Assembly (NCBI GenBank): GCA_963849325.1
Contig: CAWKHF010000012.1
Location: 704,001-768,000, forward strand
Length of the DNA: 64,000 nt
Origin: an uncultured Planctomycetota bacterium
GTDB taxonomy: Bacteria > Planctomycetota > Planctomycetia > Gemmatales > Gemmataceae
Direction of reading: 5' to 3'
Shown here: positions 1 through 17,048 of the stretch, in pieces
Numbering within the stretch: position 1 is the first letter of the stretch
Layout: the number at the start of each line of letters is the position of its first letter
The notes under the pieces: model-generated
Seen by the model: the letters and a program-made list of their open reading frames with translations, nothing else
What the model was told of the DNA's origin: nothing
Databases searched by the model: none
Translations under genes and position numbers: made by a program

Positions 1-1110
1 CGGCACCTTCTGCACCGTGGTCACCGGCACCATCTTGCAGACGGTGTACGGCACCTTCTTGACGACGGTGTAGGGCACCTTCTTGCAGACGGTGTAGGGC
101 ACCATCTCGGTGACGCACTGCTTGACCATCTTGGTGCAGGGCACCGGCTCGCAGATGGTGCGGCATCTTCATGACCTGGCGGGTGCACATCTGGTCGGGG
201 CACTTGATCGTGCAGCGCTGCCAGTGGCCCTTCTGCTGCTGGCACGCAGCAGGTGCAGGGGTCGAAGCAGCAGCTATCGCAGGTACGCTGCCAGACGTGC
301 TTGGTCTTGCCGGGCACGCAGTACGTCTCGCAGCAGCACTCCTTGACCTTGCGCGTGACCGTCTTGCAGGTCGTGACCGGCTTGCAGATCGTCTTGGTGC
401 ACGGCTTGTAGCAGGTCTCGATGCAGTCGCGGTAGCAGGTCTGGCAGCACTCCTTGTAGCAGGTCTGGTAGCACGGCTTGCAGGTGGTGCAGCAGACTTC
501 CTTGACGCACTGCACGCAGACCGGCTTGCAGACGGTGTAGCAGCACTCGCGGCAGCACGTCTCGCAGAACTGATGGCAGGCCTGATGGCAGGCCTGGTGG
601 CAGTGCGTCTCGTAGACCGGCTTGCAGACCGTGTAGCAGCACTCGCTCACGCAGCACTCCGGCACGCGCTTGCAGGTCGTGTAGCAGCACTGCTTGTAGC
701 AGGTCTCGTAGCACGGCTTGCAGCAGGTCTGGCAGCACTTCCTTGTAGCAGGTCTTGTAGCACGGCTTGCAGCTCGTGCAGGGCACTTCCTTGTAGCAGG
801 TCTGGTAGCAGGCTTGATAGCAGGTCTTGCACTCGTCGCGGTAGCAGGTCTTGCAGACCTGCTTCATGACGGTCTCCTGGACCGTCTGATAGCAGGTCTG
901 CCAGCGTTTCTCCAGAACGGTGTCGTAGACCAGCTTGTAGCAGGTCTTGCACTGTTGCTGGCAGGTCGGGAAGCAGCACTGGGCGTCGCAACACGGCTGC
1001 GGACAGCAGCTGTAGTTGGAGCAGCCGCAGTGCGCTGCCGCCGCATACTGGACGACCCCGAACAGGCCGACCATCGCAGCCAGCAACGGCGCTCCCAAGC
1101 GCATCCTCAT
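1..1110 (-). CDS. Secreted Cys-rich YTV-repeat protein (frameshifted; runs off left edge)
   Basis: Signal peptide MRMRLGAPLLAAMVGLFGVVQYAAAAH, then CKPCYQTCYKEV-type repeats and KKVPYTVC 8-aa repeats near position 1-100. Read across ORFs 274..1110 and 21..665 plus further frameshifts. Confidence 0.75.
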
Positions 1111-1498
1111 GACAATCGCCTCCTCATCGACACGATGTTGTGTGGAATCCCAGGGGAGAAGTTCTGCCGGCGTGGGGCTCTCCAGCCGGGCTGTCCGACG
1201 AGAGGCTACGCCCTCCCGCCGCCTGACAGCCCCACCGTGGACAACGAGCGGGTGGGTTCGCTCCTTGCTGTGCGTCCGCCGACGCGGATCGCGTTCTGGC
1301 GTTTGTTATCGGCTCGCCAGATTCGCCCGGAATAATGGTTCGGGACAGATTACGGCCCTTACCTGGCCTTCGCCCCTTCCGCCCGCAACGGCCGTAACGA
1401 CCGTGCCGAACGGCGCGGATGCGCCGGCGCTGGTGTCGCCGTCATCCGCCGCGTAGAATGGCGAAAAGACAACCCAGCTGCTTCGGGAGGACACGGCC

Positions 1499-1705
1499 AT
1501 GAGCGACCCCATCCACGACCTTGCCCCAGCGGATTACTGTGATCCGGTCATCGAAGCGTACAAGAAGGACGTGGACCGCACGCTGCTGCGCGAGAACCTG
1601 AAGCTCACCGTGGAGCAGCGGATTCGCAAAGCGGAGAGTTTTCACCGATCCATCAAGGCCTGGAGAGAGGCGGGCGAGCGGTCGCGGAGAACGGAACGCG
1701 CATGA
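1499..1705 (+). CDS. Small hypothetical protein (68 aa), possible orphan antitoxin-like protein
   Basis: GGAGG RBS upstream of ATG; coherent sequence with DVDRTLLRENLKLTVEQR. Confidence 0.65.
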   Translation: MSDPIHDLAPADYCDPVIEAYKKDVDRTLLRENLKLTVEQRIRKAESFHRSIKAWREAGERSRRTERA

Positions 1706-1725
1706 TTGCGTCGTTCATCTTGCGC

Positions 1726-1760
1726 AAAAAGAGGCCGGCGACGTGAATCACGTCGCCGGC
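1726..1760 (-). terminator. Rho-independent terminator of the 1874..2083 gene
   Basis: GCCGGCGACGTGA/TCACGTCGCCGGC stem followed by CTCTTTTT on the minus strand. Confidence 0.65.
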
Positions 1761-1873
1761 GAGTGGAGGGGTTGCGGGATTTGGGTCGGGGTGGGAGGCC
1801 GCCCGCCGGGACGCTGGGTCCCGGCCTACCCGGGTCAGGCGGCGGCCAGGGGGAGTGCGGGCAAAGGGACTCC

Positions 1874-2083
1874 TTAGGCGACCGGTTCGAGGCAGCAGCG
1901 CCGTCGCAGCGTTTCACACAGACGCTGACAACGGGCCAGGTCGCGGATCATGTTTTCGGTCAACAAACGGATCGTGTCCGGGTCTTCCGTCCATTCCAGC
2001 CGCTGCCGGCTGTCGGACAGGTGTTCGAGGATGTCTCGCAGCCACAGGATATTGGCGTCGCGCTGACTCATCTGCATATCCAC
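1874..2083 (-). CDS. Small helical hypothetical protein (~69 aa)
   Basis: AGGAG RBS before GTG; sequence (M)DMQMSQRDANILWLRDILEHL...; own promoter and terminator. Confidence 0.65.
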   Translation of the reverse strand: MDMQMSQRDANILWLRDILEHLSDSRQRLEWTEDPDTIRLLTENMIRDLARCQRLCETLRRRCCLEPVA

Positions 2084-2125
2084 TTGTGTTGATCTCCTGT
2101 TTCGCCTTCCGTGCCGAGGAACGAT

Positions 2126-2141
2126 TGCAACCGCCGTGCCA
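2126..2141 (-). promoter_or_regulatory. Sigma-54 (-24/-12) promoter
   Basis: Minus strand TGGCACG-gcgg-TTGCA, an exact match to the TGGCACG-N4-TTGCW consensus, about 45 nt upstream of the small gene. Confidence 0.7.
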
Positions 2142-2288
2142 AGATTCAGCGCGTGCCGGGCCGGCACCGTACAAGTGCTTGCGAAATGAACGGTTAGAAC
2201 GGATAAGGCCGTGCCCTTCGGTTGTCGCGGCGGCCGAGGGCTTTTGCAAATCTTACCGAGGCGAGGGGGCGAAAGATGAAAAAGTTGC

Positions 2289-4076
2289 TCACCTTGTCAT
2301 CTTCACGGGCCGGCGCGAGCGACGGTAGATCGGCTCGTCGTACCAATGCCGGGTACGTTCGTGGTCGGCGACCCAGCGCAAGGCCCGTTTGAGAAACAGG
2401 CGCGACATCAGCCAGAAGATGAGGGCCAGGCCGAGCACAGGTCAGGAGGAAGAACACGCGATGGTCGAAGGAGACGAACGGGTTGGCGCTGGTGCTCAGT
2501 TGCGTGCCGAGCTGCGCGATCGATGGCCCCGAGCAGGGCACCGAGGATCACGGCCGCGATGGCGAGGATCGGCGTGGTACCCAGATAAATGGCCAGTCCG
2601 CCGACATAGCCGGCCGCCATCGTACCCAGCAAGGCCCGCCACGAGCTGCGCGAGCGAACCGAGGCCCACAGCCCCGCCGCCCCGATGTAATACATGGCCA
2701 ACACGGTGACGGCCAGCCACAGCAGCACCCAGCACAGGGCCAGCACGCCGCCGAGGACCGACAGGACGACGGCCGGCGCCGCGTAGGCCAGCAGGTAGAC
2801 GTAGCTGGCCCCCATGATGCCCCAGAGCTTGCCGCGGATCAGCTGCTTGGCGCTGAGCGGCGTCAGCAGCAGGGCCTCCCAGGTCCGCCGCTCGCGCTCG
2901 CCGGTGACGGCGCCGGAGCAGCGGATGCCGACAACCAGGCTGGCCAGCAGCATGACCACCAGCCCCTGCACGAGGAAGCCGTCGCCAGCCGCGGGCATCC
3001 GGACGGTCAGGCGCTCCGGCTGGAAGTGGACCAGCGCCAGGATCAGGTCGCCGGCGCGGACACCGGACGGCAGCGACAGCAGTAGGATCAGCAGCGACGA
3101 GGCGATGGTGAGGGTGGAGACGCCGGCGACGGCGAGCCACGGCGGGACGCGGCGCAGGCCCGGCGTCGGCGCCAGCCCCTCGACGTGCCACTCGCGCCAG
3201 CGGATCGGCTCGTCCGCACCGGCGCGGCGCAGGGCGTTGTACCAGCGCACGGCCCGCGATCGGACGTTTTCCAACTCTCTCCGGTAGGCCGGCCGCAGTC
3301 GTCCGATGGCCAACGCCAGGCAGGTGCCGCCCAGCGTACCCCAGCACAACGACGACACGAGCAGGCGCCGACCCAGTTCGGCGAGGTCCAGACTTTGCCA
3401 CGTCCCCCACGCCGGCGCGACAACCGCAAGAGGGTTGAGGTAATCGAAGGGGCCACGGAAATACCAGACGAGCACGCCGCCGAGGGTGCCGAGCACGTAC
3501 AGGGCGAGGACGGCGTCGCGCGTCTGCCGGCACAGGACGGAGGCGAGCGAGACTGACAGATGCCAGCGCGAACAGCGGCAGGAGCAGGGCGACGGCCACG
3601 GCCACAAGCGTCACGGGCTGCACGCCGCCGAAGCCGGCCAGCAGGGCGAACAGCGGCAGCCCGGCCAGGGCCACCAGCGACACCTGAGCGACCCGGCCGA
3701 GCAGCTTGCCGAGCAGGATGTGCCGCGCTTCCAGGTCCGCCGTTAGCAGATATTGCAGCGTGCCGCGGCGCTTCTCGTCGGTGATGGAGCCGGCGACGAA
3801 GGCCGGCGTCGCCAGGACCAGAACGATCAACTGCTGGGCCACGAACGTTTCGGCGAACCATTGGCCGACGATTTCCGGGGCCGAGGCGCGGGCGACGAAG
3901 GAAGACGTGTTGGCGACGAGCCGTCCCCTCAGCCGGGTCGCCTCTTCATTTTCATACCGGACGTATCCGTAAAAAACCAGCACGACGAGCCAGCCGGCGT
4001 AAACCCAGCGGAACAGGTACAGCCGATGGCGGCGACTGCCGAGCAGCCATTCCTGATGCAACACGGCGCCAACCAT
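2289..4076 (-). CDS. ABC-2 type transporter permease with two repeated membrane domains (frameshifted)
   Basis: Two ABC-2 motifs, SITDEKRRGTLQYLLTA and AVTGERERRTWEALLLTPLS. C-terminus read manually to TGA at 2289. Confidence 0.8.
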
Positions 4077-4142
4077 CGGCCACGCCCTCGGAGTACTTCC
4101 TACTCACCCAGGCTACCGTAGCCGGCACGGGTCCGCAACACG

Positions 4143-4196
4143 GTCGGCCGGCTCTGGAAGTTCCAGGCCGAGGAGATCGACGCCTGAGTGCGCGGT
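4143..4196 (+). pseudogene. Remnant of excisionase-family (HTH_17/MerR-like) DNA-binding protein
   Basis: Translates VGRLWKFQAEEIDA*VRG, the typical C-terminal motif of excisionase-like proteins, with Trp mutated to TGA and the N-terminus missing. Confidence 0.5.
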
Positions 4197-4346
4197 CCAT
4201 GGGCCAGGCCCTCGTCCGTGACCGCATCGCAGCTGAGGAACAGATTGACTACAAAAGAGAGGTAAAATAGAAATTTAAAGGCAAAGCTTGCTCGACGGCC
4301 CCAATGGCCTTTTCCGTCGGGACAGCCAGTCGCCGGCGAGGACGTG

Positions 4347-5286
4347 TCAAGAGGAGGACGATTCCGGCCGCATTCGCCGTGACACGTCGCGGAGCCGGCT
4401 GAGCTGCTGCACGAGGAGAGGGACGCCGCCGAGGCCGCCGGCGAACAATTGGACGTACCGGAAGATCGCCACGACCGAGCCGCGTCGGCGCCCCCCGTAG
4501 CACAGGAACGCAGGAGCGCAACCGCCATCAGTCCCAGCACGAACACCTCCATCCGCCCGAAATTAAGTGCCTCCCCGTCCGATAGCGCCACGCGCCACGC
4601 GCCAACATGCGATAGTGTCGCCGTACCTCGCGTGGCCGCCCTCGACCGATCGCGTCCACCTCGCGTTCCAGCTGGTCGTTGAGCCGGCCATTCAGCCGTA
4701 GCATCTGACGGCCATAGGAGCAGTTGAGGCTGTACAGCGGGAGCAGCAGCGACAAACACAACGGCACCATTACCCAGTCATAGAGGGCGAGCATGGCGGC
4801 GGCGCCGGCCAGCGAGTACAGCACCTCCAGGGCGACGGGCACGTCGCGCTCGAAGAAGGACACCATCTCGCGCGACAGGGCCGACCGCGCCGCCAGCCGC
4901 GACAGCTCGACCCGCCCCCGCTGCGCGAGGACCAGCCGGCTGGCCAGGTCGGTGTAGATGTGGCTGAAAGCGCGCGTGTCGTACATGCGCCGCCCGCCGC
5001 TGAGCAAGACGTAGACGGCGTGCTGGAGAACGAAAAACAACAGCCCTCGGTAGGAAGCGCCCAGGAGGTCGTGCACGGCCAAGCCCAGCACGAAGGGATG
5101 CGCCAGCCGGGCCAGGTTCTCCAGGGTGAACAGGCCATAGGTCAGCAGGATACGTCGGCGGTGGATACGGAACAACGCGCGGAGGCCCGTTAGCTGCGGT
5201 TGGCATCCTGGCGTCGTTAGGCCGCCATCGTCCGCGACGGCGGCCGCCGTCGCCTCGTCGGTCGTAAGCTCCAGTGTCGTGCTCAT
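4347..5286 (-). CDS. ABC-type six-transmembrane-domain protein without ATPase; putative lasso peptide export/immunity (frameshifted)
   Basis: Hydrophobic helices with RRMYDTRAFSHIY and LNDQLEREV motifs. Continues across frameshifts to ...RRMRPESSSS* at 4347. Directly downstream of the cyclase. Confidence 0.65.
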
Positions 5287-5314
5287 GGATCATCTCCCCT
5301 TGAGACTTCCACAC

Positions 5315-7219
5315 TCATCCCGAGACCAATGCGCGCTCCGCCCTGGTCGATTCGTGCCGTCCGTCCGGGCGGATCACTCGGCTCGGAACGGGCCGCTGCT
5401 CCAGCCAGCGCGGTAACAAATCCAGCCATTTGACGATGGACAGGGTGTTGTCCAGGCTGATGGCGCCGTGCGGGCTGCTGATGCCGAGCGCGGCTTGATG
5501 CAGACAGCTCAGCAAGGAGGCCTTGTCGAAGAGGCCGAGTTCCTCGGAAGGCGACGCACGGATCAGCTGCTCCAGGTAGGCCTGGTTTCGTGACAGGCCG
5601 GTGTAATAGACGGAGTTGTAATGCGTCTTGCCGCGGCGCTGGCGAATGTTCGCGGGGAGGACGTCGCGCATCGCCTCGGCGAGGATCGGCTTTTGCGCCC
5701 CCGGCTCCGGCCGAACGTGGACCCGGATGCCCAGTGCGTAGCGGAAGACGCGCAGGTCCCGAAACGGATGGGCCGCGACAATGCCGAGCGGCGCCGCCAG
5801 CGTGTACCGGCCCCAATCGCCGACGGCCGAACGAGCCCGTTCCAGTGCCTCGGATTGCACCACGGTGCCGGCTGCATGGAAGTGCCGGCGAACGTTGTTC
5901 AGCGCCCGGTCGCGCAACTGACCCCGGCGGGCGAAGTCGGGGAGGACCCAGGGAGCGATCGTCCAAAAATTCTGATGCTTCCAGTCGGCGTAGCCTTGGT
6001 GAAACAAGGCACGCAGGCCCACTTGCGCCCACGCGGGCATCAAAGGAGTCAGGCCACAGGGACGAAGGACGCTCCAAATACTGCTGTTGCGGGCCCGCGC
6101 CCACCGACACGACTCGGACCAGGCAGCCCCCAGACGCCCTCGCCGGAGCAGATCGGCGATTCGGAACGGTCGCTGGGCCAGCATTTCGTCGGCCCCCGTG
6201 CCGGTGAGGACCGTATCCGCGCCCACCGCGGCTGCCGCTCGCAGCAAAGCCCTCTCCACGCCGACTCGTTGCAGCCCCGGGATCGGCTCGTCATGCAAGG
6301 GCATATCGTGGAACACATCGAAGTCCAGGATGTTGTCGGCAGGAATTCGGTGCGCGACCAGGCCAGGCCGGTTCAGGGCCTCTTCCAGAAACGGCGTCTC
6401 GTTGTGGAGGTTCGCCAGGCCCTGGTACGTCAGCGACAGGGTGTGCAGGGGACGACCTTCGCGGACGAGTTCCTCGCGCGCCAGCAGGGCGACCGAGGTG
6501 GAGTCCATCCCGCCGGAAAAATGCGCGGCCATGCACCCCTTCAGCCGTTCGCGTACCGCTTGACGAAGCAACTGACCGTACTGGTCGGCAAGTTCGGTGG
6601 TACAGGCGGTGCCGGGGTCCACGGCTCGTTCGGGCCATTTCCAGAACTCGTGCTGCCCCACCGTGCCTCGCGGCAGATCGGCCGTGATCGACCAACCGGG
6701 TACCAGTCGCCGCACGCCCTCGAACACGGTCCCCTCGAAGTAGTCGATCTCGAAATTGGGCAGCATCAGCATCTCGCCCAGGAACTCGACGTTCAGCGCG
6801 CGGCGGGGCAACCGATCGACGAGCGGTCGAAGGCCGGTGGCGAAGGCGACGGTTTCGCCCTGATGCAACCAGTAGATCGGATATCCACCCATCGCCTCCC
6901 GGGAAGCAAGCAGGTGCCGCTGCTTGCGGTCCCAGATCACGAGAGCGAAATCGCCTTCCAGCTGCTCGACGCCGGCAAGCCCCCGGTGGCGGTAGGCTGC
7001 CAGGGCCAGGTCCGCATCGCCGACAGGACTTCGATCGTCGCCGGCATCCGGCAAGCGCGCCTTCAGCTCACTCCGATAGTAAAGCCGGCCCATGAGTACG
7101 GCCTGGCAATCCCGGTCGGCGGCCCAGGTGACCAGATGCGGACGACCGGGATGATCCGGGCCGAAAACGTGAAATTCCACCATGTCGCCCCGGGCGACGA
7201 CCATGAAGCCAACTTGCAT
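5315..7219 (-). CDS. Lasso peptide cyclase (asparagine synthetase-like C protein)
   Basis: FSGGMDS PP-loop, TGTGADE, HPFRD, K..L..AM...LP..I..R..K. No N-terminal catalytic Cys. GGAG RBS before ATG at 7219. Adjacent to the B protein and precursors. Confidence 0.9.
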   Translation of the reverse strand: MQVGFMVVARGDMVEFHVFGPDHPGRPHLVTWAADRDCQAVLMGRLYYRSELKARLPDAGDDRSPVGDADLALAAYRHRGLAGVEQLEGDFALVIWDRKQRHLLASREAMGGYPIYWLHQGETVAFATGLRPLVDRLPRRALNVEFLGEMLMLPNFEIDYFEGTVFEGVRRLVPGWSITADLPRGTVGQHEFWKWPERAVDPGTACTTELADQYGQLLRQAVRERLKGCMAAHFSGGMDSTSVALLAREELVREGRPLHTLSLTYQGLANLHNETPFLEEALNRPGLVAHRIPADNILDFDVFHDMPLHDEPIPGLQRVGVERALLRAAAAVGADTVLTGTGADEMLAQRPFRIADLLRRGRLGAAWSESCRWARARNSSIWSVLRPCGLTPLMPAWAQVGLRALFHQGYADWKHQNFWTIAPWVLPDFARRGQLRDRALNNVRRHFHAAGTVVQSEALERARSAVGDWGRYTLAAPLGIVAAHPFRDLRVFRYALGIRVHVRPEPGAQKPILAEAMRDVLPANIRQRRGKTHYNSVYYTGLSRNQAYLEQLIRASPSEELGLFDKASLLSCLHQAALGISSPHGAISLDNTLSIVKWLDLLPRWLEQRPVPSRVIRPDGRHESTRAERALVSG

Positions 7220-7236
7220 GACAGGGATCTCCGTAA

Positions 7237-7325
7237 GAGGCACTAACAAAATGTGGCAACACGTTTTCAACGTGTTGGATTGTACGGCACGTTACAAACG
7301 TGCCGCCACATTCGGTTCGTGCCTC
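7237..7325 (+). mobile_element. 89-bp miniature inverted-repeat element, copy 1
   Basis: GAGGCACTAAC...GTTCGTGCCTC terminal inverted repeats flanked by TAA on both sides; internal hairpins. Confidence 0.75.
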
Positions 7326-7331
7326 TAATGC

Positions 7332-8111
7332 TCATTGATAGCGAAGTGCTGGGATGTACGAGACGCAGTTTTCCGCGTGGTCGCTGACGATCCAGGGTCC
7401 GGCCTCGCACCAGCAATGGCCGGAGAGGGGAAAGAGTTCGACGCCGATCACCAGGGCGGCCGGCAAGCCGGCGAGACGAGCCAGGACCCAACAAGAAAGG
7501 GCACGTTCCTTGCAAGCCACGCCGAACGGGTTCCAGGCCGCCGCGCTGCAAACCGCGTCATCGATGGCCCGGACCCGCGCCTCCGCTTGGCGCGGCGAAA
7601 GACGAAGCGGACGGATCGGGAACTGCCGTCGCCAGGCGGCGATCGTCCGGGTCCAACCCAGGGAGGCGAGGCAAAGCTTCGCCGCGGTCAACAGCACGGC
7701 GGCTCGGGCCTTCAGTGAGGGCGTCCAACTGAGGGTCCGGTTCAGCATTCCAGCCGCCAGGCACGTCTTGCCGAGGTTTTCCAATCCTCGGCCGGCGCCT
7801 CCTCGATTCCGCCAGAGAATGCCCCGCTTCTCCAGGGTCGCCAGAAAGTGCCTCAAGTCGGCTTCCACCTGAGAGCACGCGACGTCGTACTCGGCCGCCA
7901 CACGCTGGACGGCGGCCGCAGGCCCGTGCTGGAGTGTCTGCCGCAGCATCAGGATTGCGGCGGGTGGAACAGCATAAAAGCGGTCTGCCATATCCAAAAT
8001 GCGGGCACTGCCGTCCGCCATCGGAATGACGGCCACATCCGGCGCCAGGGAATACTCCAGGCCGTTGTTGGTCGCGGTTTGCTGCCGACAGAGAATCGTT
8101 TGGGTGGACAT
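7332..8111 (-). CDS. Fused lasso peptide B protein (PqqD-like RRE + transglutaminase-like leader peptidase)
   Basis: N-terminal PqqD-like region (ARILDMADRFYAV...VAAEYDV...VEADLRHFLATLEKRGIL). C-terminal ACKERAL / GHCWCE / VSD Cys-His-Asp triad. Confidence 0.9.
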   Translation of the reverse strand: MSTQTILCRQQTATNNGLEYSLAPDVAVIPMADGSARILDMADRFYAVPPAAILMLRQTLQHGPAAAVQRVAAEYDVACSQVEADLRHFLATLEKRGILWRNRGGAGRGLENLGKTCLAAGMLNRTLSWTPSLKARAAVLLTAAKLCLASLGWTRTIAAWRRQFPIRPLRLSPRQAEARVRAIDDAVCSAAAWNPFGVACKERALSCWVLARLAGLPAALVIGVELFPLSGHCWCEAGPWIVSDHAENCVSYIPALRYQ

Positions 8112-8181
8112 GATATTACCTCTCTCGTCAACAAGGCCCGTTGGAAAAGGACGCCGTACTTCGCCAAGGTTGGGACCGTAA

Positions 8182-8270
8182 GAGGCACTAACCGAATGTG
8201 GCGGCACGTTTGTAACGTGCCGTACAATCCAACACGTTGAAAACGTGTTGCCACATTTTGGTAGAGCCTC
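8182..8270 (-). mobile_element. 89-bp miniature inverted-repeat element, copy 2 (inverted)
   Basis: Reverse complement of copies 1 and 3; flanks are TAA and GAA. Confidence 0.75.
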
Positions 8271-8333
8271 GAAGGGACCCAATAGCTCGGCACGTAAAGG
8301 GCATCCTCATCCAACGAGTCCGGTTGCTTGGGA

Positions 8334-8525
8334 TCACCAGTAGCGGGTGCGGTTGGCGTCGGAGTAATTGCCGCCGCCGCCCCCCTGCACCAGCTCGACC
8401 GCCTTGCCGACGTCGTGCAGTTCCGGAGTGTGATACGCGCGGGGCGAAACCAGGCTGTCCTGCCGAGTCTCGGTCCCCTCGACGGAAGCGACCGGACTAC
8501 CCAACTTGAGATCTTTGGCCAACAT
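8334..8525 (-). CDS. Lasso peptide precursor A2 (63 aa; predicted core GGGGGNYSDANRTRYW)
   Basis: AGGAG RBS; leader YHTPELHDVGKAVELVQ (YxxPxL motif); Gly1 with Asp9 acceptor. Confidence 0.85.
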   Translation of the reverse strand: MLAKDLKLGSPVASVEGTETRQDSLVSPRAYHTPELHDVGKAVELVQGGGGGNYSDANRTRYW

Positions 8526-8635
8526 GACGTTCTCCTGTTCAGGATAAGTGTGGCAAGCCGGCATCAGGGCCCCTTGCTCCGATGATCTCGTCCTGCCGCA
8601 GTCACAAAGAGTCCGTTGCGAAGAACACCGTCCGA

Positions 8636-8824
8636 CTAATACTGGCGGGCGCGGTTGTTGTCGGCGACATTGCCGCCGCCCCCCTGTACCAGTTCGACCG
8701 CCTTGCCGACGACGTGCAGCACAGGGGCGCGATAGACACGAGGCGCGTCCGGAGCGTCCTGCTTCCTCTCGGCCGTCCCGGCGAAGGCATTCTCGACACT
8801 CGACGTGAACTTGGTGGGAACCAC
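8636..8824 (-). CDS. Lasso peptide precursor A1 (62 aa; predicted core GGGGNVADNNRARQY)
   Basis: AAGGAG RBS before GTG; leader YRAPVLHVVGKAVELVQ; Gly1 with Asp8 acceptor. Confidence 0.85.
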   Translation of the reverse strand: MVPTKFTSSVENAFAGTAERKQDAPDAPRVYRAPVLHVVGKAVELVQGGGGNVADNNRARQY

Positions 8825-9091
8825 AGTGGTCTCCTTGAAGATGGTTTCTCAGGAGGGCATCAAAGCCCATCGTTCTGATGATCTCCTCCTGCTTTCGCAG
8901 ACTGTTACGCTCGTCGGGCCGAGACGTTACAGCCCCTTCGGGCAGGATTTTCTCGCCAAGACTTCAACGAGAAAACCCGACGGATTGCTTGTGTGGCCCA
9001 ACCCGTTCGAGGATAATTGATCCTTTCCGCAGTCCACCGTCCGTAATCGTGAGTCCGGACGTGCTTGGGATGACCTCTGGCTGGAGTCGCC

Positions 9092-12000
9092 ATGTTCGCT
9101 CCAAGGTCTCGTGCCTGGTTCGTCATCGGAGCGTGGATCGTGGTTCCCTCGCTCTGGGCCGAAACACCAAAACCACCTCTGACACCCGAAAAACAAGCGA
9201 AGTTGGAGGAGCGCGACCGTCATCTGGCGAAGGCGCGGACGCTCTTCTCGGAGGGCAAATTGGCCGAGACGCTCGCCGTCGTCGAAAAGATGCTGGCGCT
9301 GGATCGTCAATTATTTGGCGATGCGCACGACGACACGGTGGAAGCGCTGGAGTGGCTCGCCGAACTGTACGAGCTAAGGGAAGACTTCGCCGCCGCGCGC
9401 AAGGCTCGTGGAGAGGTTGTGGACATCCAGGCCAGGATGCACGGCCCAGACAGCCCTCTCGTCGCCGGTGCCCGCCTGGCCCTGGAGCACGTCGATCGCC
9501 TGGAGAAGCTCGACAGGGATCAGCGCCGGCTCCTGGCGGAAGCGGGCCCACTGCTGGCGCGGATGCACGCTCTTATCCAGGCCAACAAGCATCGCGACGC
9601 CATTCCTGTGGCGGAGGAAGCACTGGCCAGGCGGCAGAAGGTGCTGGGTGAACCGCACTGGCTCTGCGCCGAGACGCTGGCGACGATCGGATTCTTGTAC
9701 CGGCGAACCGGCGATCTCGTCCGGGCGGAGCGGTGCTATCTTCGTGCCCGCGACATCCGTAAGCGGACGCTGGGCGAGACACACCCCGATTACGCCATCG
9801 TCCTCAATAACCTGGGCACCCTCTACCTTGTGCAGCGGGATTACGACCGAGCCGGGACGTTCTACCGACAGGCGGCGACGGCCTTGAAGCAATCGCGGGG
9901 AGAGAAGCACCACCAGTATCTTATGGCCGTGACCAATCTCGCCTTCGTCCATCGGCAAAGGGGCGAATACGACGAGGCGGAGAAGCTCTACCGCGAGGTC
10001 CTCGACGCCAAACGGCAGACGCTAGGGGAAAAGCACGCCGACTACGCGAGCGCCCTGGGCGATCTGGCGGAATTCTACATGACTCGGGACACCCCCGCTG
10101 GCGCAGAACCGTTGGCGCGTCAGGCGCTGGACATCTTCCGGGAGGTCCAGGGCCAGCGCGATCCCCAGACACTTTACGCTCTGAACCGTTTGGCCAATGT
10201 CTACTGGAGGATGAAGGACTACGCCAAGGCCGAACCGCTCTATCGCCGGGTGGTTGAGGTCCGCAAGGAGACGGTGGGCGAGAAACATCCCGATTACGCG
10301 GCGAGCCTGAACAATCTCGCGCTGCTCTACGCGAATAAGGGCGAGAGCGAGCGTGCCGAGCCGCTCTTTCTGCGGGCGATGGAGATCACCCGCCAGACGC
10401 AAGGGGAAAAGCACCTCGGATACACGACCCAGCTCCGCAACCTGGGACGCCTCTATCAGGACGAGAAACGGTACGACAAAGCCCTGCCGCTCTTGCAACA
10501 GGCAGCGACCCTCCACAAGGAGTTACTGGGCGAGAAGCATCCATCCTACGCGACCGCGCTGAACGACCTGGCCATGCTGTACGTGGACCTCAAGAAGTTC
10601 GCTCAGGCCGAGCCAATCTTCCGGCGGCTTCTGGCCATCCACAGAGAGACGGTCGGCGAGAAACACCCCGACTACCTCGGCAGTCTCCGAAGCCTCGGAC
10701 TCCTGCTGGAGGACCAGGCCCGGGAATACGAGTCCCGCGACGACCTGGCGTCGGCTCGCAAGGCACGTCAGGAGGCACTGTCGATCCACACCAAACTGGA
10801 TGGCGGCCGGCACTGGCGGACGGTCGATGCGCGCCTGCGGCTGGAATTGCTCGAACGTCTGGGGCCATGGGACCCGGAGCGGCGCCGGCAGTTGCGCGAA
10901 ACGGAAGGCGTGTTGAGTCGGGCTTGGGAGCTGAAGAATCGCGGCAAGGATCGAGAGGCCGTGCCGCTGGCACAGCAAGCGCTGCAGGTCCGGCAGCAGC
11001 TATTGGGCGAAGACCACTGGCTGACGGCCGATGCTCAGACAGGGCTGGCTTCCGCTCTCACCGATGGCCGGGAATACGCGCGGGCGGAACCGCTTTACCA
11101 GCGCGCACTGACGACCTCGCAAAAGGTCCTGGGCGAACAGCATCCCGATTGCGGCTACCTGCTGCATCAACTCGGCTTCGTCCACGAAAACAGGGGCGAG
11201 TATGCTCGTGCCGAGCGGAGATACCAGGAAGCCCTCGACATTCGCGGCCGCGTGCAGGGCCAAAAGAACCGCTCCTATGCCACGACCCTCGGCAACCTGG
11301 CCGCGCTGTGCCGGATTCGGGGAGACTATGCACGGGCCGAGCGGCTGGGCCGGGAGAACCTGGAACTCCGGGAGCAAGTGGTTGGCCGACACCATCCGGA
11401 TTACGCCCTGAGTCTGATGACCCTGGCCTGGCTCGCCGAGCACCGGCGCGATTACGTGCAGGCGGAGAAACTGACGCGCCAGGCCCTGGACATCCGCACG
11501 AAGGCCCTCGGCGAAGCTCATGCCCAATGCGGGGAGTGTTGGAATCTGCTCGGCGACGTAGCCTGTTACCGAGGCGACTTTGCGCGAGCGGAGTCGCTGC
11601 AACAACAGGTCCTGGCGATCTACCGCAAGGCGCAAGGAGAGAAGCACCCGGATTGTGCCTGGCCCCTCACGAACCTGGCCGAAATCTATTCGAAAACAGG
11701 CCGTTTTCTCCAGGCGGAGACTGCCAACCGTGAGGCCCTGGCGATCCTCCGCCAGTCTCTGGGAGAGAAACACCCGCGCTACGCTCGGCTCCTGCACGAA
11801 CGGGGCGCCCTGTACCGCCACATGGGCAAGCCCGCACAGGCCGAGGCGCTTCTTCGCCAAGCGCTGGCCATTCACAAGGAGACGCTCGGCGAGAACCACA
11901 TCGAGTACGGCAACACCCTGTCCGAGCTGGCGTCGCTGGCCAACCACCAGGGGAGATACGTCGAGGCCGAGGCGTTGTATCGCCGCGACCTGGCGATCCG

Positions 12001-15000
12001 CAAGCAAGCCCACGGCGCGAAGACGAGCGATTACGCCATCATCCTGAGCAATCTGGCGATCGTCGCGGACAACCGAGGTGCCTACGCCGAGGCGCAGTCT
12101 CTGCACGAAAGCGCCCTCGCCATTTACAAGGAGCTGGGACGAGAGAAGCATCCCGATTTCGCTACCGCCCTGAATAACCTGGCCTGCGTGTGCGACCACA
12201 AGGGCGACTACGCGCGAGCCGAAGGCCTGTACGCGCAGGCCTTGGCGATCCGCAAGGAAGTGCTGGGGGAGTCCCATCCGGATTACGCCCTCAACCTGAA
12301 TAACCTGGCGTCTCATTATCGCTCCCGCGGCGAGCTGAAGCGATCGGTGGCGCTGGCGCGAAAGCGCTGGAGGCGAGGCGGCGGGCCGTGGGAGAGAAGC
12401 ACCCCGACTATGCCCTCACCCTCAACAACCTGGCCATGAACCTGTATGAGGACATGGGCGAATATGCCGAGGCCGAACGACTCCTGGGACAAGCCCTGGC
12501 GATTCGCAAGGAAGTGCTGGGGGACAAGCATCCCGATTATGTCAATTCGCTGAGCAGCCTGGCCGGCTTCCATCAGACCAAAGGCGAGTACACCCGCGCC
12601 GAGACCTTGTACAAGGAAGTGGTGGCGACCCGCAAGGAGATCCTGGGCGAACGCGACCTGGAGTACGCCTCCGCTCTGAACCGTCTCGGCCAGCTCTATG
12701 TTCACATGGGAGATACTCTCCGCGCGGAGCCTCTTCTGCGGCAGGCGCTGGCGATTCGCAAGGACATCCTGGGCGAGCGGCACCGTTCCTACGCCCAGAG
12801 TCTCTACGAGCTGGGCAAGATGTACCTCGCCAAGGGAGATTACGTTCGCGCCGAGCCGTTCTGTCGCCAGGCGCTGGAGGTTGATCGGAAGACCCTCGGA
12901 GCGAAGCATCCCTCCGTGGCGAACAGCCTGTCCCTGCTCGCCACGCTTTACCAAGAGATGGGGGATTACGCCCGCGCCGAGGCCTTCGTGCTTCAGGCGC
13001 TGGCGATCGACCGGGAGGCGCTGGGGGAGCAACATCCCGCTTACGCGATCACCTTGACCAACGCGGCGATCCTGTACAGCGCCCGAGGCGATTACCAACA
13101 GGCCGAACGGATGACGCGGCAAGCGCTGGCGATCCGAGAACGGACCCTGCCCAGGAAGCACCCCTCGTATGCCAACAGTCTCAACAGCATGGGGGCCCTG
13201 TGTCGCCGCCGGGGCGATGACGCCGCGGCCACGGAATACTACCAGCGCGGTCTGGACGTGTGGCAGCAGGTGTTCGGGCAGGACAACGTGCATTGCGCGG
13301 TTGGTCTCCATAATCTGGCCGTGTCCTCTATCTACCAGCGCGATTGGCAGAAGGCGGAGTCGTATCTCCAACAATCCCTCCGGATTCGCAGAGCCGTGCG
13401 AGGCGAATTCGATCCGGCCGTTGCCGGCGACCTGTCGGACCTGGCCTTGCTCTCGTGGGTAAAGGGAGATTATCTCACGGCCGAGACGTTTTCTCGTCAG
13501 GCGGTCGAGGCCATCCGCCAGCACAACGATCGGCTCGCCGCTGTCCAGTCGGAGCGCCAGCAACTGGCTCGCGTTCATACCCTGCGCGATCTACTCGATC
13601 GCTACCTGTCCTTGACGGCGGAGGCGAACCTCGCCGGGGAGCAGGTCTATCCGCAGGTTCTGGCCTGGAAGGGGGCCGTCTCGGCTCGTCAGCGAGCCAT
13701 CCGCGCCCTGCAGCGCGCCACCCGAGGAGGCGACAAGCCGGAGGTCGCGCGGCTTTACCAGGATCTGGACCAAGCCACGCGGCGGCTGGCCGTCCTCTCG
13801 CAACTCGACGCCGCCGACCGCGACCACCGCCGCAAGGTCCAGGAACTCAGCGATGCGATTGAGCGACTGGAACGGAAGTTAGCCGAAATCAGCCAGGATT
13901 TTCGCCGACAGGTGGAGCAGCGACGGCGCACCGCCGACGATCTCCGTCGCGCTCTGCCAGCCGGCAGCGTGCTGGTCGATGTCTTGGTCTACGACCACGC
14001 CGTGCCGACCAAGGAAGGCCCGATGAAACTGATCACCGAAGTGCGCCTGGCCGCCTTCGTCGTCCGACCGGATCGGGATCGCATCGAGCGCGTCAATCTC
14101 GGACCGGCCCAGCCCGTCACGGAAGCGCTGAATCGTTGGCGGTTGGCCCTGCAACGACGCTTTCGCACCGAGGGAGACGCGCGCCTGTCCGCGGAAGTTC
14201 GCCGGCTGGTCTGGACGCCGCTGGAGAAGCACGTCGGAGACGCCAAACTCGTACTGATCTCCCCCGACGGAGCCTTGACTCGTTTCCCGTGGGCGGCCCT
14301 GCCCGGCGCGAAGGCGGACAGCTACCTGATCGAAGAGCGGGCCTTGGCGGTCATCGCAGTGCCTCAGCTGCTGCCCGACCTGCTCGCCGAGCGCGCCGGG
14401 CCGCCAGACGAGCCGTCGCTGCTTGTCGTCGGCGGCGTGAACTTCGACGCGGAGGCCGGCGCGGTCGGGGGCGACGCCCTGACGCGGTCGTCGCCGCGCG
14501 CGGCCGCGCGGGGGAGCCGTTCCAGTGGACGCGGTTGCCGGGAACGCTCCTGGAGATGCAGGCCGTGCGCGACACCTTCCGTTGCCGTTACCCGGCCGCC
14601 GGTTTGGTGGACCTCCGCGAGGACCGGCCAACCGAAGCGGCCGTGCGCCAGGCCATCGCCCGACATCGCTTCCTGCACTTCGCCACCCACGGCTACTTCG
14701 CCCCCAAGGAATTGCGCTCCGCCCTGGCCGAAACGTCGCGACGGCACGAACTGGAGACCGACGACCTGTCGGCGCGGCGAGACCTGGTTGGCTTCCATCC
14801 GGGCTTGCTGTCGGGCCTGGTGCTGGCCGGCGCCAATCGGCCGGTGCATCCCGAGAGAGACGACGGCATCTTGACCGCGTTGGAAGTGGAAGCGTTGGAC
14901 CTGACCGGCGTGGAGTTGGCGGTGCTGTCGGCGTGCGAGACAGGGTTGGGCGAGGAAAGAGCGGGTGGCGAAGGTCTGTTGGGACTGCAACGTTCCTTCC

Positions 15001-15296
15001 AGGTGGCGGGGGCGCGCGGCGTGGTGGCGAGCCTGTGGCAAGTGGACGACGCGGCCACGCGGAAGCTCATGACCGAGTTCTATCAGAACCTGTGGCAAAA
15101 GAAGCTGCCCAAGCTGGAGGCGCTGCGTCAGGCTCAGCTGTGGATGTTGAAAGAGGGTGAGGGCTGGATGCGTAAGGAAGGCATTCCCCGCGGCCTGATC
15201 GACGTGAAGGTGCCGCGCGAGCGGCTGGCGAAAGACGATGGTCGTCTGCCGCCGTACTACTGGGCCGCCTTCGCCCTATCCGGGGACTGGCGTTAA
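9092..15296 (+). CDS. Giant secreted TPR-repeat protein with C-terminal CHAT (caspase-like) protease domain (~2060 aa, two frameshifts)
   Basis: Signal peptide; dozens of 42-aa TPRs (GEKHPDYAxxLNNLA); CHAT motifs HFATHG, LSACETG, PYYWAAF. ORFs 9092..12439, 12388..14874 and 14136..15296. Confidence 0.88.
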
Positions 15297-15385
15297 GAGG
15301 CTCTAACAAAATGTGGCAACACGTTTTCAACGTGTTGGATTGTACGGCACGTTACAAACGTGCCGCCACATTCGGTTCGTGCCTC
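15297..15385 (+). mobile_element. 89-bp miniature inverted-repeat element, copy 3
   Basis: One mismatch versus copy 1. Left TAA is the CHAT stop codon; right TAA at 15386-15388. Confidence 0.75.
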
Positions 15386-15584
15386 TAAATATTCTATCCC
15401 AAGCGACTGCACCTGTCCTTACGACGACGCCTCGTGTTCGGAGCGCGAGCGACGGATCGGCCCGTCGCTCGCGCTCCGAGTTGGTTGTTTATGCGCGCAC
15501 CCGTTACATTGAAACACTATGTCCGCCCCGAGAGAAGCCGTCGAGTTCCTTTGATCCGACTCTCAGAGACAAACCAAACGGAGA

Positions 15585-17048
15585 GTGGAACCCGTGAAAT
15601 CAAGAGGTTGGAGCTTCCTCAGTCTTGTCCTGGTCACTTCCTTCGGTAGCCGCGCGTGGGCCGAGCCTTCCGCGGCACTGGAAGGGCGACGACCCAACAT
15701 GATCTTTGTTCTGACGGATGACCAGGGCTACGGCGACCTGTCGTGCCACGGCAACCCGATCCTCAAGACCCCGAACCTCGACCGGCTGCACGACGAGGGC
15801 GTCCGCTTCACGGACTTCCACGTCAGCCCAACCTGCTCACCGACGCGCTCGGCCTTATTGACCGGCCGGCATGAGTTCAAGAACGGCGTCACGCACACGA
15901 TCCTTGAGCGAGAGCGCTTGACGCGGAAGGCGACAACCGTTGCCCAGGTGCTGAAGTCGGCCGGCTACACGACCGGCATCTTCGGGAAATGGCACCTCGG
16001 CGACGAGTCCGACCACTGGCCGGACAAGCGCGGTTTCGAGGAGATGTTCATCCACGGCTGCGGGGGCATCGGCCAGAGCTACCCCGGCAGCTGTGGCGAC
16101 GCCCCCGGCAACACCTACTTCGACCCGACCATCCTGCACAATGGCAAGTTCGAGAAGACCAAGGGCTATTGCACCGACGTCTTCTTCGGCCAGGCACTGC
16201 GCTGGATCGAGTCGGTGAAGGGCAGGAAGCCGTTCTTCTGCTATCTGCCCACGAACGCCCCCCATGCCCCACTGCAGGTACGCCCCGAGGACGAGAAACG
16301 CTACGCCGACAAGGTGAAGGACCCGAACACGGCGAAGTTCTTCGGCATGATCGCCAACATCGATGACAACGTCGGACGACTCCTGGATAAGCTCAAAGAA
16401 TGGGGTCTTGAGCGCGACACACTGGTCATCTTCATGAACGACAACGGTGGTACGGCCGGGGTGCGCGTCTTCAACGCCGGTATGCGCGGCGCCAAGGTCA
16501 CGCCCTGGCTGGGAGGCACGCGGGCGGCGTCGTTCTGGCGCTGGCCGGGAACGCTGAAGCCCGGCGACGTGGATCGCCTGGCCGCCCACATCGACTTCTT
16601 CCCCACCGTGGCCGAGATCGCCGGGGCGAAGCGAAGCGACAAGGTGAGAGCGCAGGTGGAAGGCCGGAGCCTGGTGCCCCTGTTGCGCGAGCCGAAAGCG
16701 GAGTGGCCCGACCGAATTCTGTTCACACACGTCGGCCGCTGGCCGAAAGGAGCGAAACCGGCGGACCACAAATACGCTCATTGCAGTGTGCGCAGCCCGC
16801 GCTGGCACCTGGTCTGCGACACCAGGGACGGCACGAAGAAGTGGCAGTTGTTCGACGTGAAGGCCGACCCCGGCGAGAAGACCGACGTGGCGGCCAGGCA
16901 TCCCGAGGTGGTGAAGGAGCTGGACGCGTCTTACGACAAGTGGTGGGACTCGGTGCAACCGGGTATGGTGAACGAGGACGCTACTGGGCCGAAGGTCAAC
17001 CCGTTCAAGGAACTGTACGAGAAGCAGTTCGGCGGCAAGTCGAAATAG
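15585..17048 (+). CDS. Arylsulfatase (formylglycine-dependent sulfatase)
   Basis: PNMIFVLTDDQG, CSPTR, GKWHLG, NAPH, DNG motifs; signal peptide. Confidence 0.9.
   Translation: MEPVKSRGWSFLSLVLVTSFGSRAWAEPSAALEGRRPNMIFVLTDDQGYGDLSCHGNPILKTPNLDRLHDEGVRFTDFHVSPTCSPTRSALLTGRHEFKNGVTHTILERERLTRKATTVAQVLKSAGYTTGIFGKWHLGDESDHWPDKRGFEEMFIHGCGGIGQSYPGSCGDAPGNTYFDPTILHNGKFEKTKGYCTDVFFGQALRWIESVKGRKPFFCYLPTNAPHAPLQVRPEDEKRYADKVKDPNTAKFFGMIANIDDNVGRLLDKLKEWGLERDTLVIFMNDNGGTAGVRVFNAGMRGAKVTPWLGGTRAASFWRWPGTLKPGDVDRLAAHIDFFPTVAEIAGAKRSDKVRAQVEGRSLVPLLREPKAEWPDRILFTHVGRWPKGAKPADHKYAHCSVRSPRWHLVCDTRDGTKKWQLFDVKADPGEKTDVAARHPEVVKELDASYDKWWDSVQPGMVNEDATGPKVNPFKELYEKQFGGKSK

Follow-up and report, generated by a model that had tools for sequence, protein, structure and literature searches.

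Threonine occupies the penultimate leader position (-2) in 94% of predicted lasso peptide precursors (PMC11420955), and a penultimate-Thr rule has served as a filter in precursor-centric mining (PMC7327761). Ile and Val at this position have been described as 'rare but not uncommon' in a report (PMC10368454) that credits predicted Ile/Val/Ala(-2) precursors to Kretsch 2023 and one Ile(-2) case to Tietz 2017; the Ile/Val(-2) precursors it presents come from Acidobacteriaceae, Sphingomonadales and Bradymonadales, in every case accompanied by a kinase and by a leader peptidase split into B1 and B2 proteins. Ile(-2) was validated biochemically in BsfA, which is no longer cleaved once this residue is replaced by Thr or Ala (Duan et al. 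2023, PMC10368454). Here we analyse a lasso cluster encoded in a 64,000-nucleotide (nt) stretch of DNA from an uncultured Gemmataceae planctomycete (contig CAWKHF010000012.1, positions 704,001 to 768,000; hereafter the window), whose two precursor genes, A1 and A2, both carry Val at -2 and stand ahead of a gene for a fused leader peptidase, B. The original prediction for this DNA had taken Thr(-2) to be the usual residue and one relied on in mining, as the literature above bears out, and had read the Val as pointing to a B enzyme with a re-shaped S2 pocket and perhaps to a separate lasso subfamily that Thr-based mining misses in part. What the window holds is a lasso cluster with an aliphatic P2 residue, and the original interpretation is partly anticipated by published work; the cluster departs from the published ones in its fused B, in belonging to a clade that also uses Leu and Met at -2, and in the lack of any kinase family found among the open reading frames (ORFs) scanned. 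The genes and codons at issue are the following.

8636..8824, minus strand: precursor A1, GTG start with AAGGAG 7 nt upstream, 62 amino acids (aa)
8687..8689, minus strand: Val(-2) codon of A1, GTA
8334..8525, minus strand: precursor A2, ATG start with CAGGAG upstream, 63 aa
8388..8390, minus strand: Val(-2) codon of A2, GTG
7332..8111, minus strand: lasso leader peptidase B, 259 aa, matching PF05402, PF13471 and NF033537

We consider it probable that two paralogous class II lasso precursors open the A1-A2-B-C-transporter row of this Gemmataceae-type planctomycete, with Val as the native P2 residue and as a trait of the clade. The two genes share 85% nucleotide identity that is confined to the last 78 nt of both, for which reason we regard them as diverged paralogs, and they are the only two copies, no third having been found in the genome. 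Their predicted cores are GGGGNVADNNRARQY for A1, with a ring from G1 to D8, and GGGGGNYSDANRTRYW for A2, with a ring from G1 to D9. The A1 leader carries Y31xxP34xL36x3G40 with Val46 at -2, and both leaders end in VGKAVELVQ followed by a run of Gly. Counted from the Q|G junction (the bar marks the predicted cut), both genes place Tyr at -17, Pro at -14, Leu at -12 and Gly at -8, the canonical lasso register. Since the two leaders match Y-x-x-P-x-L-x3-G-x5-[V]-x exactly, Val, residue 46 in A1 and in A2, holds the canonical place of Thr(-2). Both short precursors thus combine a YxxPxLx3G leader with a small residue at core position 1 and an Asp or Glu at 7-9, and have Val where Thr is frequent though not obligatory. 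A1 has no Pfam or NCBIfam match, and A2 reaches 12.5 bits against NCBIfam lasso_leader_L3, under the cut-off of 19, the one result here that bears on possible under-reporting by mining tools.

The sequence GKAVELVQ|G reported for both precursors, with Val encoded once by GTG and once by GTA, is confirmed at the codons listed above. The motif (E/D)LVQ|GGGG is kept in nine of nine non-self metagenomic A1 homologs from a search of a 5.8-billion protein set, as is the core; two different codons and nine concordant homologs rule out a sequencing error or chance as the source of Val(-2), which the original prediction had judged unlikely. The other way out that it named, a different cut site with Thr at -2, was looked for in both ORFs, and neither has a Thr two residues before any plausible core start: A1 lacks Thr altogether after the motif Tyr, and A2 has it only at -15 and in the tail.

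B joins an N-terminal PqqD-like RRE domain (B1) to a transglutaminase-like Cys protease domain (B2) with C200, H232 and D244 as catalytic residues. It scores 57.1 bits against NCBIfam NF033537 (lasso_biosyn_B2; cut-off 33), 9.9e-15 against PF13471 and 28.3 bits against PF05402 (cut-off 23.4), and is the sole lasso B2 match in its genome. C200 and H232 are invariant and D244 is at least 90% conserved among 20 aligned B relatives; in 222 aligned clade rows the Cys, His and Asp are present in 220, 220 and 218. A Cys-His-Asp leader peptidase, a PqqD-like RRE (here fused) and an asparagine-synthetase-like cyclase (C) give the locus the hallmarks of a lasso cluster.

Among described systems, the Bsf cluster of Bradymonas sediminis (BsfA/BsfB1/BsfB2/BsfK; PMC10368454) resembles the window in its YxxPxL at -17 to -12, its Gly1-Asp8 ring and its aliphatic -2 residue, which in Bsf is required for cleavage. 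It differs in that B1 and B2 are separate proteins, whereas B of the window is fused, and in its HPr-kinase-like kinase, which phosphorylates Ser3; moreover, BsfB1 has Tyr37 where the window clade has Phe, and the clade also uses Leu and Met at -2 (PMC10368454). The Ile/Val(-2) clusters in the report of Duan 2023 all encode a kinase or phosphotransferase (PMC10368454), in contrast to the window and its clade, where no HPr-kinase was found in the ORFs scanned. By Pfam, no kinase family, HPr-kinase included, was detected among the ORFs scanned across window positions 21-17048, and no HPr-kinase family in the 26 longest clade loci, where only ORFs of at least 150 aa were scanned; a large Hanks-type kinase fusion, unrelated to HPr-kinase, lies nearby in three of the 26 (L023, L066 and L069). 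The locus therefore has the aliphatic -2 residue of the kinase-associated Ile/Val(-2) group, with no such kinase or phosphotransferase among the ORFs scanned and with a fused B in place of that group's PadeB2-related split B1/B2.

The Tfu (fusilassin/fuscanodin; TfuA/TfuB1/TfuB2, TfuB1 being FusE) and Tbi (TbiB1) systems share with the window the RRE fold and leader-binding region, which align with B residues 7-100 (6jx3, 5v1u/5v1v; E values 1e-6 to 3e-6), and the catalytic Cys-His-Asp of B2. They differ in their split B1/B2 and in a Tyr at the position of Phe45 of the window enzyme. Tbi precursors carry Thr(-2). FusA, too, has Thr(-2) (PMC10368454). Microcin J25 clusters (PMC11420955) share the fused B1-B2 peptidase and the A-B-C-transporter layout, but McjA has Thr(-2) and its T-2M variant yields about 1%.

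How far the Val extends was assessed in 65 clade loci: the window, three loci from genomes and 61 from metagenomes (B identity 29-49%), the metagenome contigs being scanned with an alignment of 20 B relatives. A search of 201 genomes of the same family had given seven matches, and only four of these (G000, G138, G022 and G109, the window's own genome included) have a real B, because the 316-aa query contained repeat-derived residues. Two of the other three genomes have a precursor, reading KLVQ|GSDLYK... (L001/L023) and ...LEQVQ|AYYHGSYRD... (L022); in the third (L021 of G022, an 11-kb contig) B, C and an ABC_membrane_3 gene are present and a precursor was not found. The nearest genome relative of B belongs to a Gemmataceae metagenome-assembled genome, the only locus recovered by a single-protein B scan of genome contigs.

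Precursors were sought with no constraint at -2, by a leader-motif regular expression followed by a hidden Markov model (HMM) of 18 leader-end positions. The HMM returned 56 precursor ORFs, 55 of them distinct, in 48 of the 65 clade loci. At -2 these 55 have Val in 25 cases, Leu in 13, Met in 7, Ile in 6, Gln in 2, and Ala and Thr in one each. We treat the lone Thr (L046, ORF ending at 3038) as spurious, because the cyclase ORF encloses it in a different frame and Gly(-8) is missing; the two Gln cases (L022 and L068), whose leaders are shorter by one residue, are ambiguous in register and, if read as VQ|A, have Asp at 9. Thus no credible Thr(-2) was found among the 55 distinct clade precursors.

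As a control, the same regular-expression scan was applied to 33 lasso-B2 loci of other Planctomycetota (401 genomes sampled, 33 with B2), where it recovered 12 precursors with Thr(-2) from 11 loci (L119, L120, L121, L123, L126, L130, L131, L132, L133 with two, L137 and L138); locus L117 is ambiguous, and L144 and L147 have Ala or Ser at -2. Because the control scan detects Thr, its absence is a property of the clade, and, judged from the sequences, Val(-2) is a clade trait and not a local oddity. Alignment of the homologous clusters at -2, the check proposed with the original prediction, accordingly returns a predominance of Val, Leu, Met and Ile, and homologs that mostly retain Thr were not seen.

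The clade is also set apart by its enzyme. Complete clade B ORFs match the profile at E values of 1e-43 to 1e-109, and the best other Planctomycetota B/B2, two fused Thr(-2) enzymes (L120 and L132), at 1e-23. A B2-domain tree separates 63 clade rows from 19 control rows with a Shimodaira-Hasegawa-like approximate likelihood ratio (SH-aLRT) support of 89, or 97 for a 62-row subset, and within the clade Val, Leu, Ile and Met interchange repeatedly (18 state changes over all labelled rows). B is fused in the clade loci with a complete B ORF, which give single full-length matches to the 259-position profile. A search of 1.84 billion representative proteins with this profile gave 308 matches at E<=1e-30, among 8980 at E<=1e-3, so the clade comprises very roughly 308 representatives. 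In the 26 clade loci of at least 5 kb the gene order is A-B-C or A-C-B, often with an ABC transporter or ABC_membrane_3 gene next.

Several precursors met in these scans depart from the common form. In L023:8225-8434, L028:204-728 and L048 (ORF ending at 746), the first suitably placed acidic residue is conserved at core position 10 (GSDLYKDFQD..., GCDLYKNFVD... and GPMVSAPYRD..., respectively), which suggests that the ring has 10 residues or that the cut falls one position further on. Precursors of L034, L057 (two genes), L062 and L066 end in ...GGW(Y/W)VW(G/N)S, and their cores in the canonical register start with Gln, Arg or Thr and have Asp at 9; such a first residue is plausible in view of metanodin, for which Asn1 is validated (PMC12670498). 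A separate Planctomycetota lasso family is represented by control loci L144 and L147 (G362 and G600), with several tandem precursors ending in ...RLA(K/R)(V/I/A)AE|G or ...RTSE|G. Their leaders are basic and lack Gly(-8). Where the RRE of Thr(-2) systems has Tyr, their enzymes have Leu, and the RRE of L145 is of this type too.

A candidate for the residue that distinguishes the clade enzymes comes from the Tfu system. Tyr33 of FusE/TfuB1, located on the RRE-leader beta-sheet, is required for cleavage and not for leader binding (bioRxiv 10.1101/2022.04.06.487251), and is suspected to contact Thr(-2) and to help form the S2 pocket (PMC10368454, citing Alfi 2022 and Kretsch 2023). In a profile-to-PDB alignment, position 45 of the window B, a Phe, aligns with a Tyr of TfuB1 and TbiB1, which is Tyr33 in the numbering V24/L26/G31/Y33 (bioRxiv 10.1101/2022.04.06.487251). 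The residues found at this position are as follows.

Clade loci (64): Phe 56, Val 2, Ala 2, Thr 2, Leu 1, Ser 1, Tyr 0
Thr(-2) control loci (8): Tyr 8
Control loci in which no precursor was found (10): Tyr 8, Phe 1, Leu 1
Ala(-2) loci (2): Leu 2
Clade proteins (222 aligned rows): Phe 178, Val 13, Cys 6, Ile 3, Leu 3, Thr 3, Ser 2, Tyr 2, gaps 12

The single control locus with Phe at position 45 is L129, where no precursor was found. Other class-specific positions (clade versus control) include 37 (Arg/Val), 56 (Leu/Trp), 201 (Lys/Leu), 221 (Val/Arg), 233 (Cys/Ala) and 235 (Cys/Val). Of these, position 201 directly follows the catalytic Cys, and 233 and 235 flank the catalytic His, giving HCWC in the clade versus HAWV. 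The best candidate for a change of the pocket would sit in the B1/RRE half (the Tyr33 equivalent to Phe) and not only in the B2 protease half. McjB offers a parallel, its P2 pocket being predicted to consist of one B1-domain and three B2-domain residues (F23, M108, L151 and S181; PMC11420955).

A model of B in complex with A1 scored 0.72, against 0.02 for the best of three controls. Of 157 solved complexes 116 attain the score mark applied, as do 2 of 215 mismatched pairs; these counts are only roughly valid here because alignments made for this analysis were used. Runs agree in at least 62% of contacts, and the predicted local distance difference test value (pLDDT) of the partner is at least 51. 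The model supports binding without showing it, and its pass may reflect likeness to the RRE-leader complexes already solved (5v1v, 6jx3). The interface comprises precursor residues 28-43 and 45-49, including V46, Q47 and G48, and on the side of B, among others, the stretches 37-52, 199-201 and 229-233, so that the end of the leader would lie at the catalytic pair. Class-specific positions are enriched in this interface (7 of 16, versus 35 of 177 other evaluated positions; one-sided Fisher p 0.034). The modelling of B with its leader that had been suggested alongside the original prediction thus lends it partial support: the leader end is predicted at the catalytic residues, and the lowest-error contacts that the output lists name no partner of Val46.

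Taken together, clade-wide -2 usage and the Phe at the Tyr33-equivalent position lend the ideas of a re-shaped pocket and a subfamily partial support. Clade-specific residues near the C-terminal end of the leader agree with a changed S2 pocket, with the lead candidate located, on the alignment and the model, in the B1/RRE half. A subfamily is borne out insofar as a distinct B clade with Val, Leu, Met or Ile and no credible Thr can be delimited; non-Thr(-2) leaders as such were already published.

Several points weigh against an altered pocket that reads a clade-wide aliphatic residue. Position 45 is Val, Ala, Thr, Leu or Ser in 8 of the 64 clade loci, and the link from Tyr-to-Phe to Thr-to-aliphatic does not amount to independent statistics, because it is in essence a single evolutionary event, the clade against the rest, with one more for the Ala(-2) group. 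McjB places a B1-domain Phe, Phe23, in the predicted Thr(-2) pocket (PMC11420955) and BsfB1 keeps Tyr37 despite Ile(-2) (PMC10368454); given these two, the Tyr33/Phe rule is not universal. The lowest-error contacts of Phe45 in the complex model are with leader residues 38-39, and no partner is listed for Val46. Seventeen of the 65 clade loci, mostly short contigs, gave no precursor, and real and spurious matches in the control scan were told apart by eye (Gly(-8), size and position). Finally, the cut site and the rings are predictions from sequence, and a cut one residue later in the Gly run, with Gln then at -2, would still leave a permitted ring size.

The alternative closest to hand is that an ordinary S2 site merely tolerates Val, which is isosteric with Thr, and that the clade-specific residues of B are lineage noise. 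Since canonical precursors carrying T(-2)I continue to be processed, at lower turnover (PMC10368454), tolerance without adaptation could suffice for Val alone; McjB combines Phe in the B1-domain pocket position with Thr(-2) (PMC11420955), and the residue association itself rests on one clade versus the rest. Yet the 55 distinct clade precursors contain no credible Thr despite many interchanges of Val, Leu, Ile and Met on the tree, and Leu and Met, which are not isosteric with Thr, account for 20 of them. A yield of about 1% from McjA T-2M in a canonical system (PMC11420955) likewise speaks against easy tolerance, and the loss of cleavage in BsfA I(-2)T demonstrates a real aliphatic preference in at least one system (PMC10368454). 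On balance we regard simple tolerance as unlikely.

We give still less weight to a true cut one or two residues deeper, after QG or QGG, which would put Gln or Gly at -2 and leave Val with no P2 role. Such a cut would still permit a 7-residue G-to-D ring in A1 and a ring of 8 or 7 residues in A2, and the shorter leaders of L022 and L068, as well as the Gln, Arg or Thr at +1 of L034, L057, L062 and L066 in the HMM register, are in keeping with it; but the spacing of Y(-17), P(-14), L(-12) and G(-8) to Q|G is canonical in both genes, relatives with a single Gly after Gln (such as LVQ|GLPIG, LVQ|GVGSG and LVQ|SGIG) keep the junction with Asp at 8-9, position +1 is Gly, Ser or Ala in 48 of 55 precursors while -2 is aliphatic in 51 of 55, and the modelled interface includes precursor residues 45-49 as well as B 199-201 and 229-233. 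Least probable of all is a silent or decayed cluster whose small ORFs are no longer made into lasso peptides, a view to which the palindromic repeats that have inserted on either side of B (A2-B and B-C), and the overlapping long ORFs in two frames of the transporter region, might lend colour. Against it, none of A1, A2, B and C is disrupted: they have kept their start codons, ribosome-binding sites and catalytic residues. Another contig set also carries close homologs of the precursor (81%) and of B (86%), which is what purifying selection would lead one to expect.

Under the preferred reading, with Val(-2) as a native P2 residue, the RRE half of the fused B would bind the YxxPxL of the leader by beta-strand pairing, as in the family at large, and the Cys200/His232/Asp244 protease half would cut between Gln(-1) and Gly1, after which the cyclase would join Gly1 to Asp8 in A1 or to Asp9 in A2. 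Together the two halves, RRE and protease, would form a more hydrophobic S2 site that selects aliphatic side chains. Such a shared hydrophobic site is the most likely arrangement, given the change of the RRE Tyr to Phe, of Leu to Lys after the catalytic Cys and of HAWV to HCWC around the His; that these substitutions cause the changed -2 preference is inferred from the alignments. More tentatively, and with somewhat less than even confidence, we propose that a fused-B branch of some 300 clusters at 50% identity, present in Gemmataceae and widely in metagenomes and not linked to kinases, switched its P2 specificity from Thr to Val, Leu, Met or Ile independently of the kinase-linked Ile(-2) group, through loss of the hydroxyl partner in the RRE (the Tyr33 equivalent to Phe) and remodelling of residues beside the catalytic Cys and His. 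If so, natural variation would confirm the pairing model of Tyr33 with Thr(-2), and the branch would supply leader and peptidase pairs orthogonal to canonical Thr(-2) systems.

Thr(-2) counts as a signature of lasso leaders, and here a whole enzyme clade has no credible Thr; precursor callers should not weight it in these lineages. The RRE Tyr thought to read Thr(-2) is Phe in the clade, which provides a natural test of the S2-pocket model, and clade peptidases with a different leader preference could serve engineering. The gain is incremental, because the principle of non-Thr leaders was already published, and members of the clade may already be catalogued in Kretsch 2023 or Tietz 2017. Our literature search returned no paper joining a lasso peptide with Gemmata and, for Val(-2)/Ile(-2), only unrelated papers among the matches listed; the supplement text of PMC10368454, as represented by its figure legends, makes no mention of Planctomycetes or Gemmata.

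The remaining genes of the cluster and the repeats around B are these.

5315..7219, minus strand: lasso cyclase C, asparagine-synthetase-like (Asn_synthase, GATase_7), about 634 aa from an MQVGF start
4528..5286, minus strand: ABC_membrane_3 protein (PF13748 at 3.7e-43)
2408..3607, minus strand: ABC-2 type permease (PF12730 at 3.7e-08, PF12679)
8174..8277, no strand assigned: 104-nt palindromic dispersed repeat, copy between A2 and B
7230..7333, no strand assigned: inverted second copy of the palindromic repeat, between B and C, 91% complementary to the 8174-8277 copy

The start of C was chosen against that of L001. C matches Pfam Asn_synthase (PF00733) at 9.5e-31 as well as GATase_7, and its best NCBIfam matches are the lasso and macrolactam cyclase models (1.8e-56 and 3.3e-51), both under their curated cut-offs (175 of the 525 bits required for lasso cyclase and 192 of 300 for macrolactam). 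The ABC_membrane_3 protein is likely an export or immunity component, and the same family also follows C in L021 and L069. Whether the ABC-2 permease is part of the cluster is uncertain. Two long overlapping ORFs in different frames lie at 2408-4076 on the minus strand, both matching ABC-2 permease models, and may represent a frameshift or two adjacent permease genes.

The palindromic repeat recurs more than 20 times across the genome, on both strands, with a further copy in the window at about 15297-15428. It folds at -58.9 kcal/mol (z -7.5), with a long hairpin in each of the two copies, and the copy between A2 and B, where the precursor genes give way to the enzyme genes, may act there as a hairpin. 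Rfam gave only sub-threshold chance matches on the hairpin repeats across 7000-9200. The repeat lies outside the B reading frame and is responsible for spurious N-terminal extensions of the B and C ORFs. A 316-aa reading of B was rejected on this ground: the dispersed repeat accounts for residues 4-45 of that longer ORF, and with homologs of 247-260 aa the start was set to give 259 aa.

Elsewhere in the window, the plus strand at 9092-15296 encodes, divergently from A1, very large TPR_10/TPR_12 proteins that have a CHAT protease domain; L069 has a Pkinase-TPR protein of similar repeat type directly upstream of its precursor. Cys-rich repeat proteins with YTV domains (PF07639) occupy 21-1110 on the minus strand. 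Among the clade loci, possible tailoring genes include a TauD-type dioxygenase and a sulfotransferase (L083:4502-5566 and 8471-9502), and a B12-binding radical SAM enzyme (L067:7468-9573) may have a tailoring or accessory role. S9-family peptidases, reminiscent of lasso isopeptidases and likewise possible accessory genes, follow the cyclase in L068:3779-5581 and L035:7904-8803. In L051:735-4552 the lasso cluster directly adjoins phage major capsid (Phage_cap_E) and tail tube genes.

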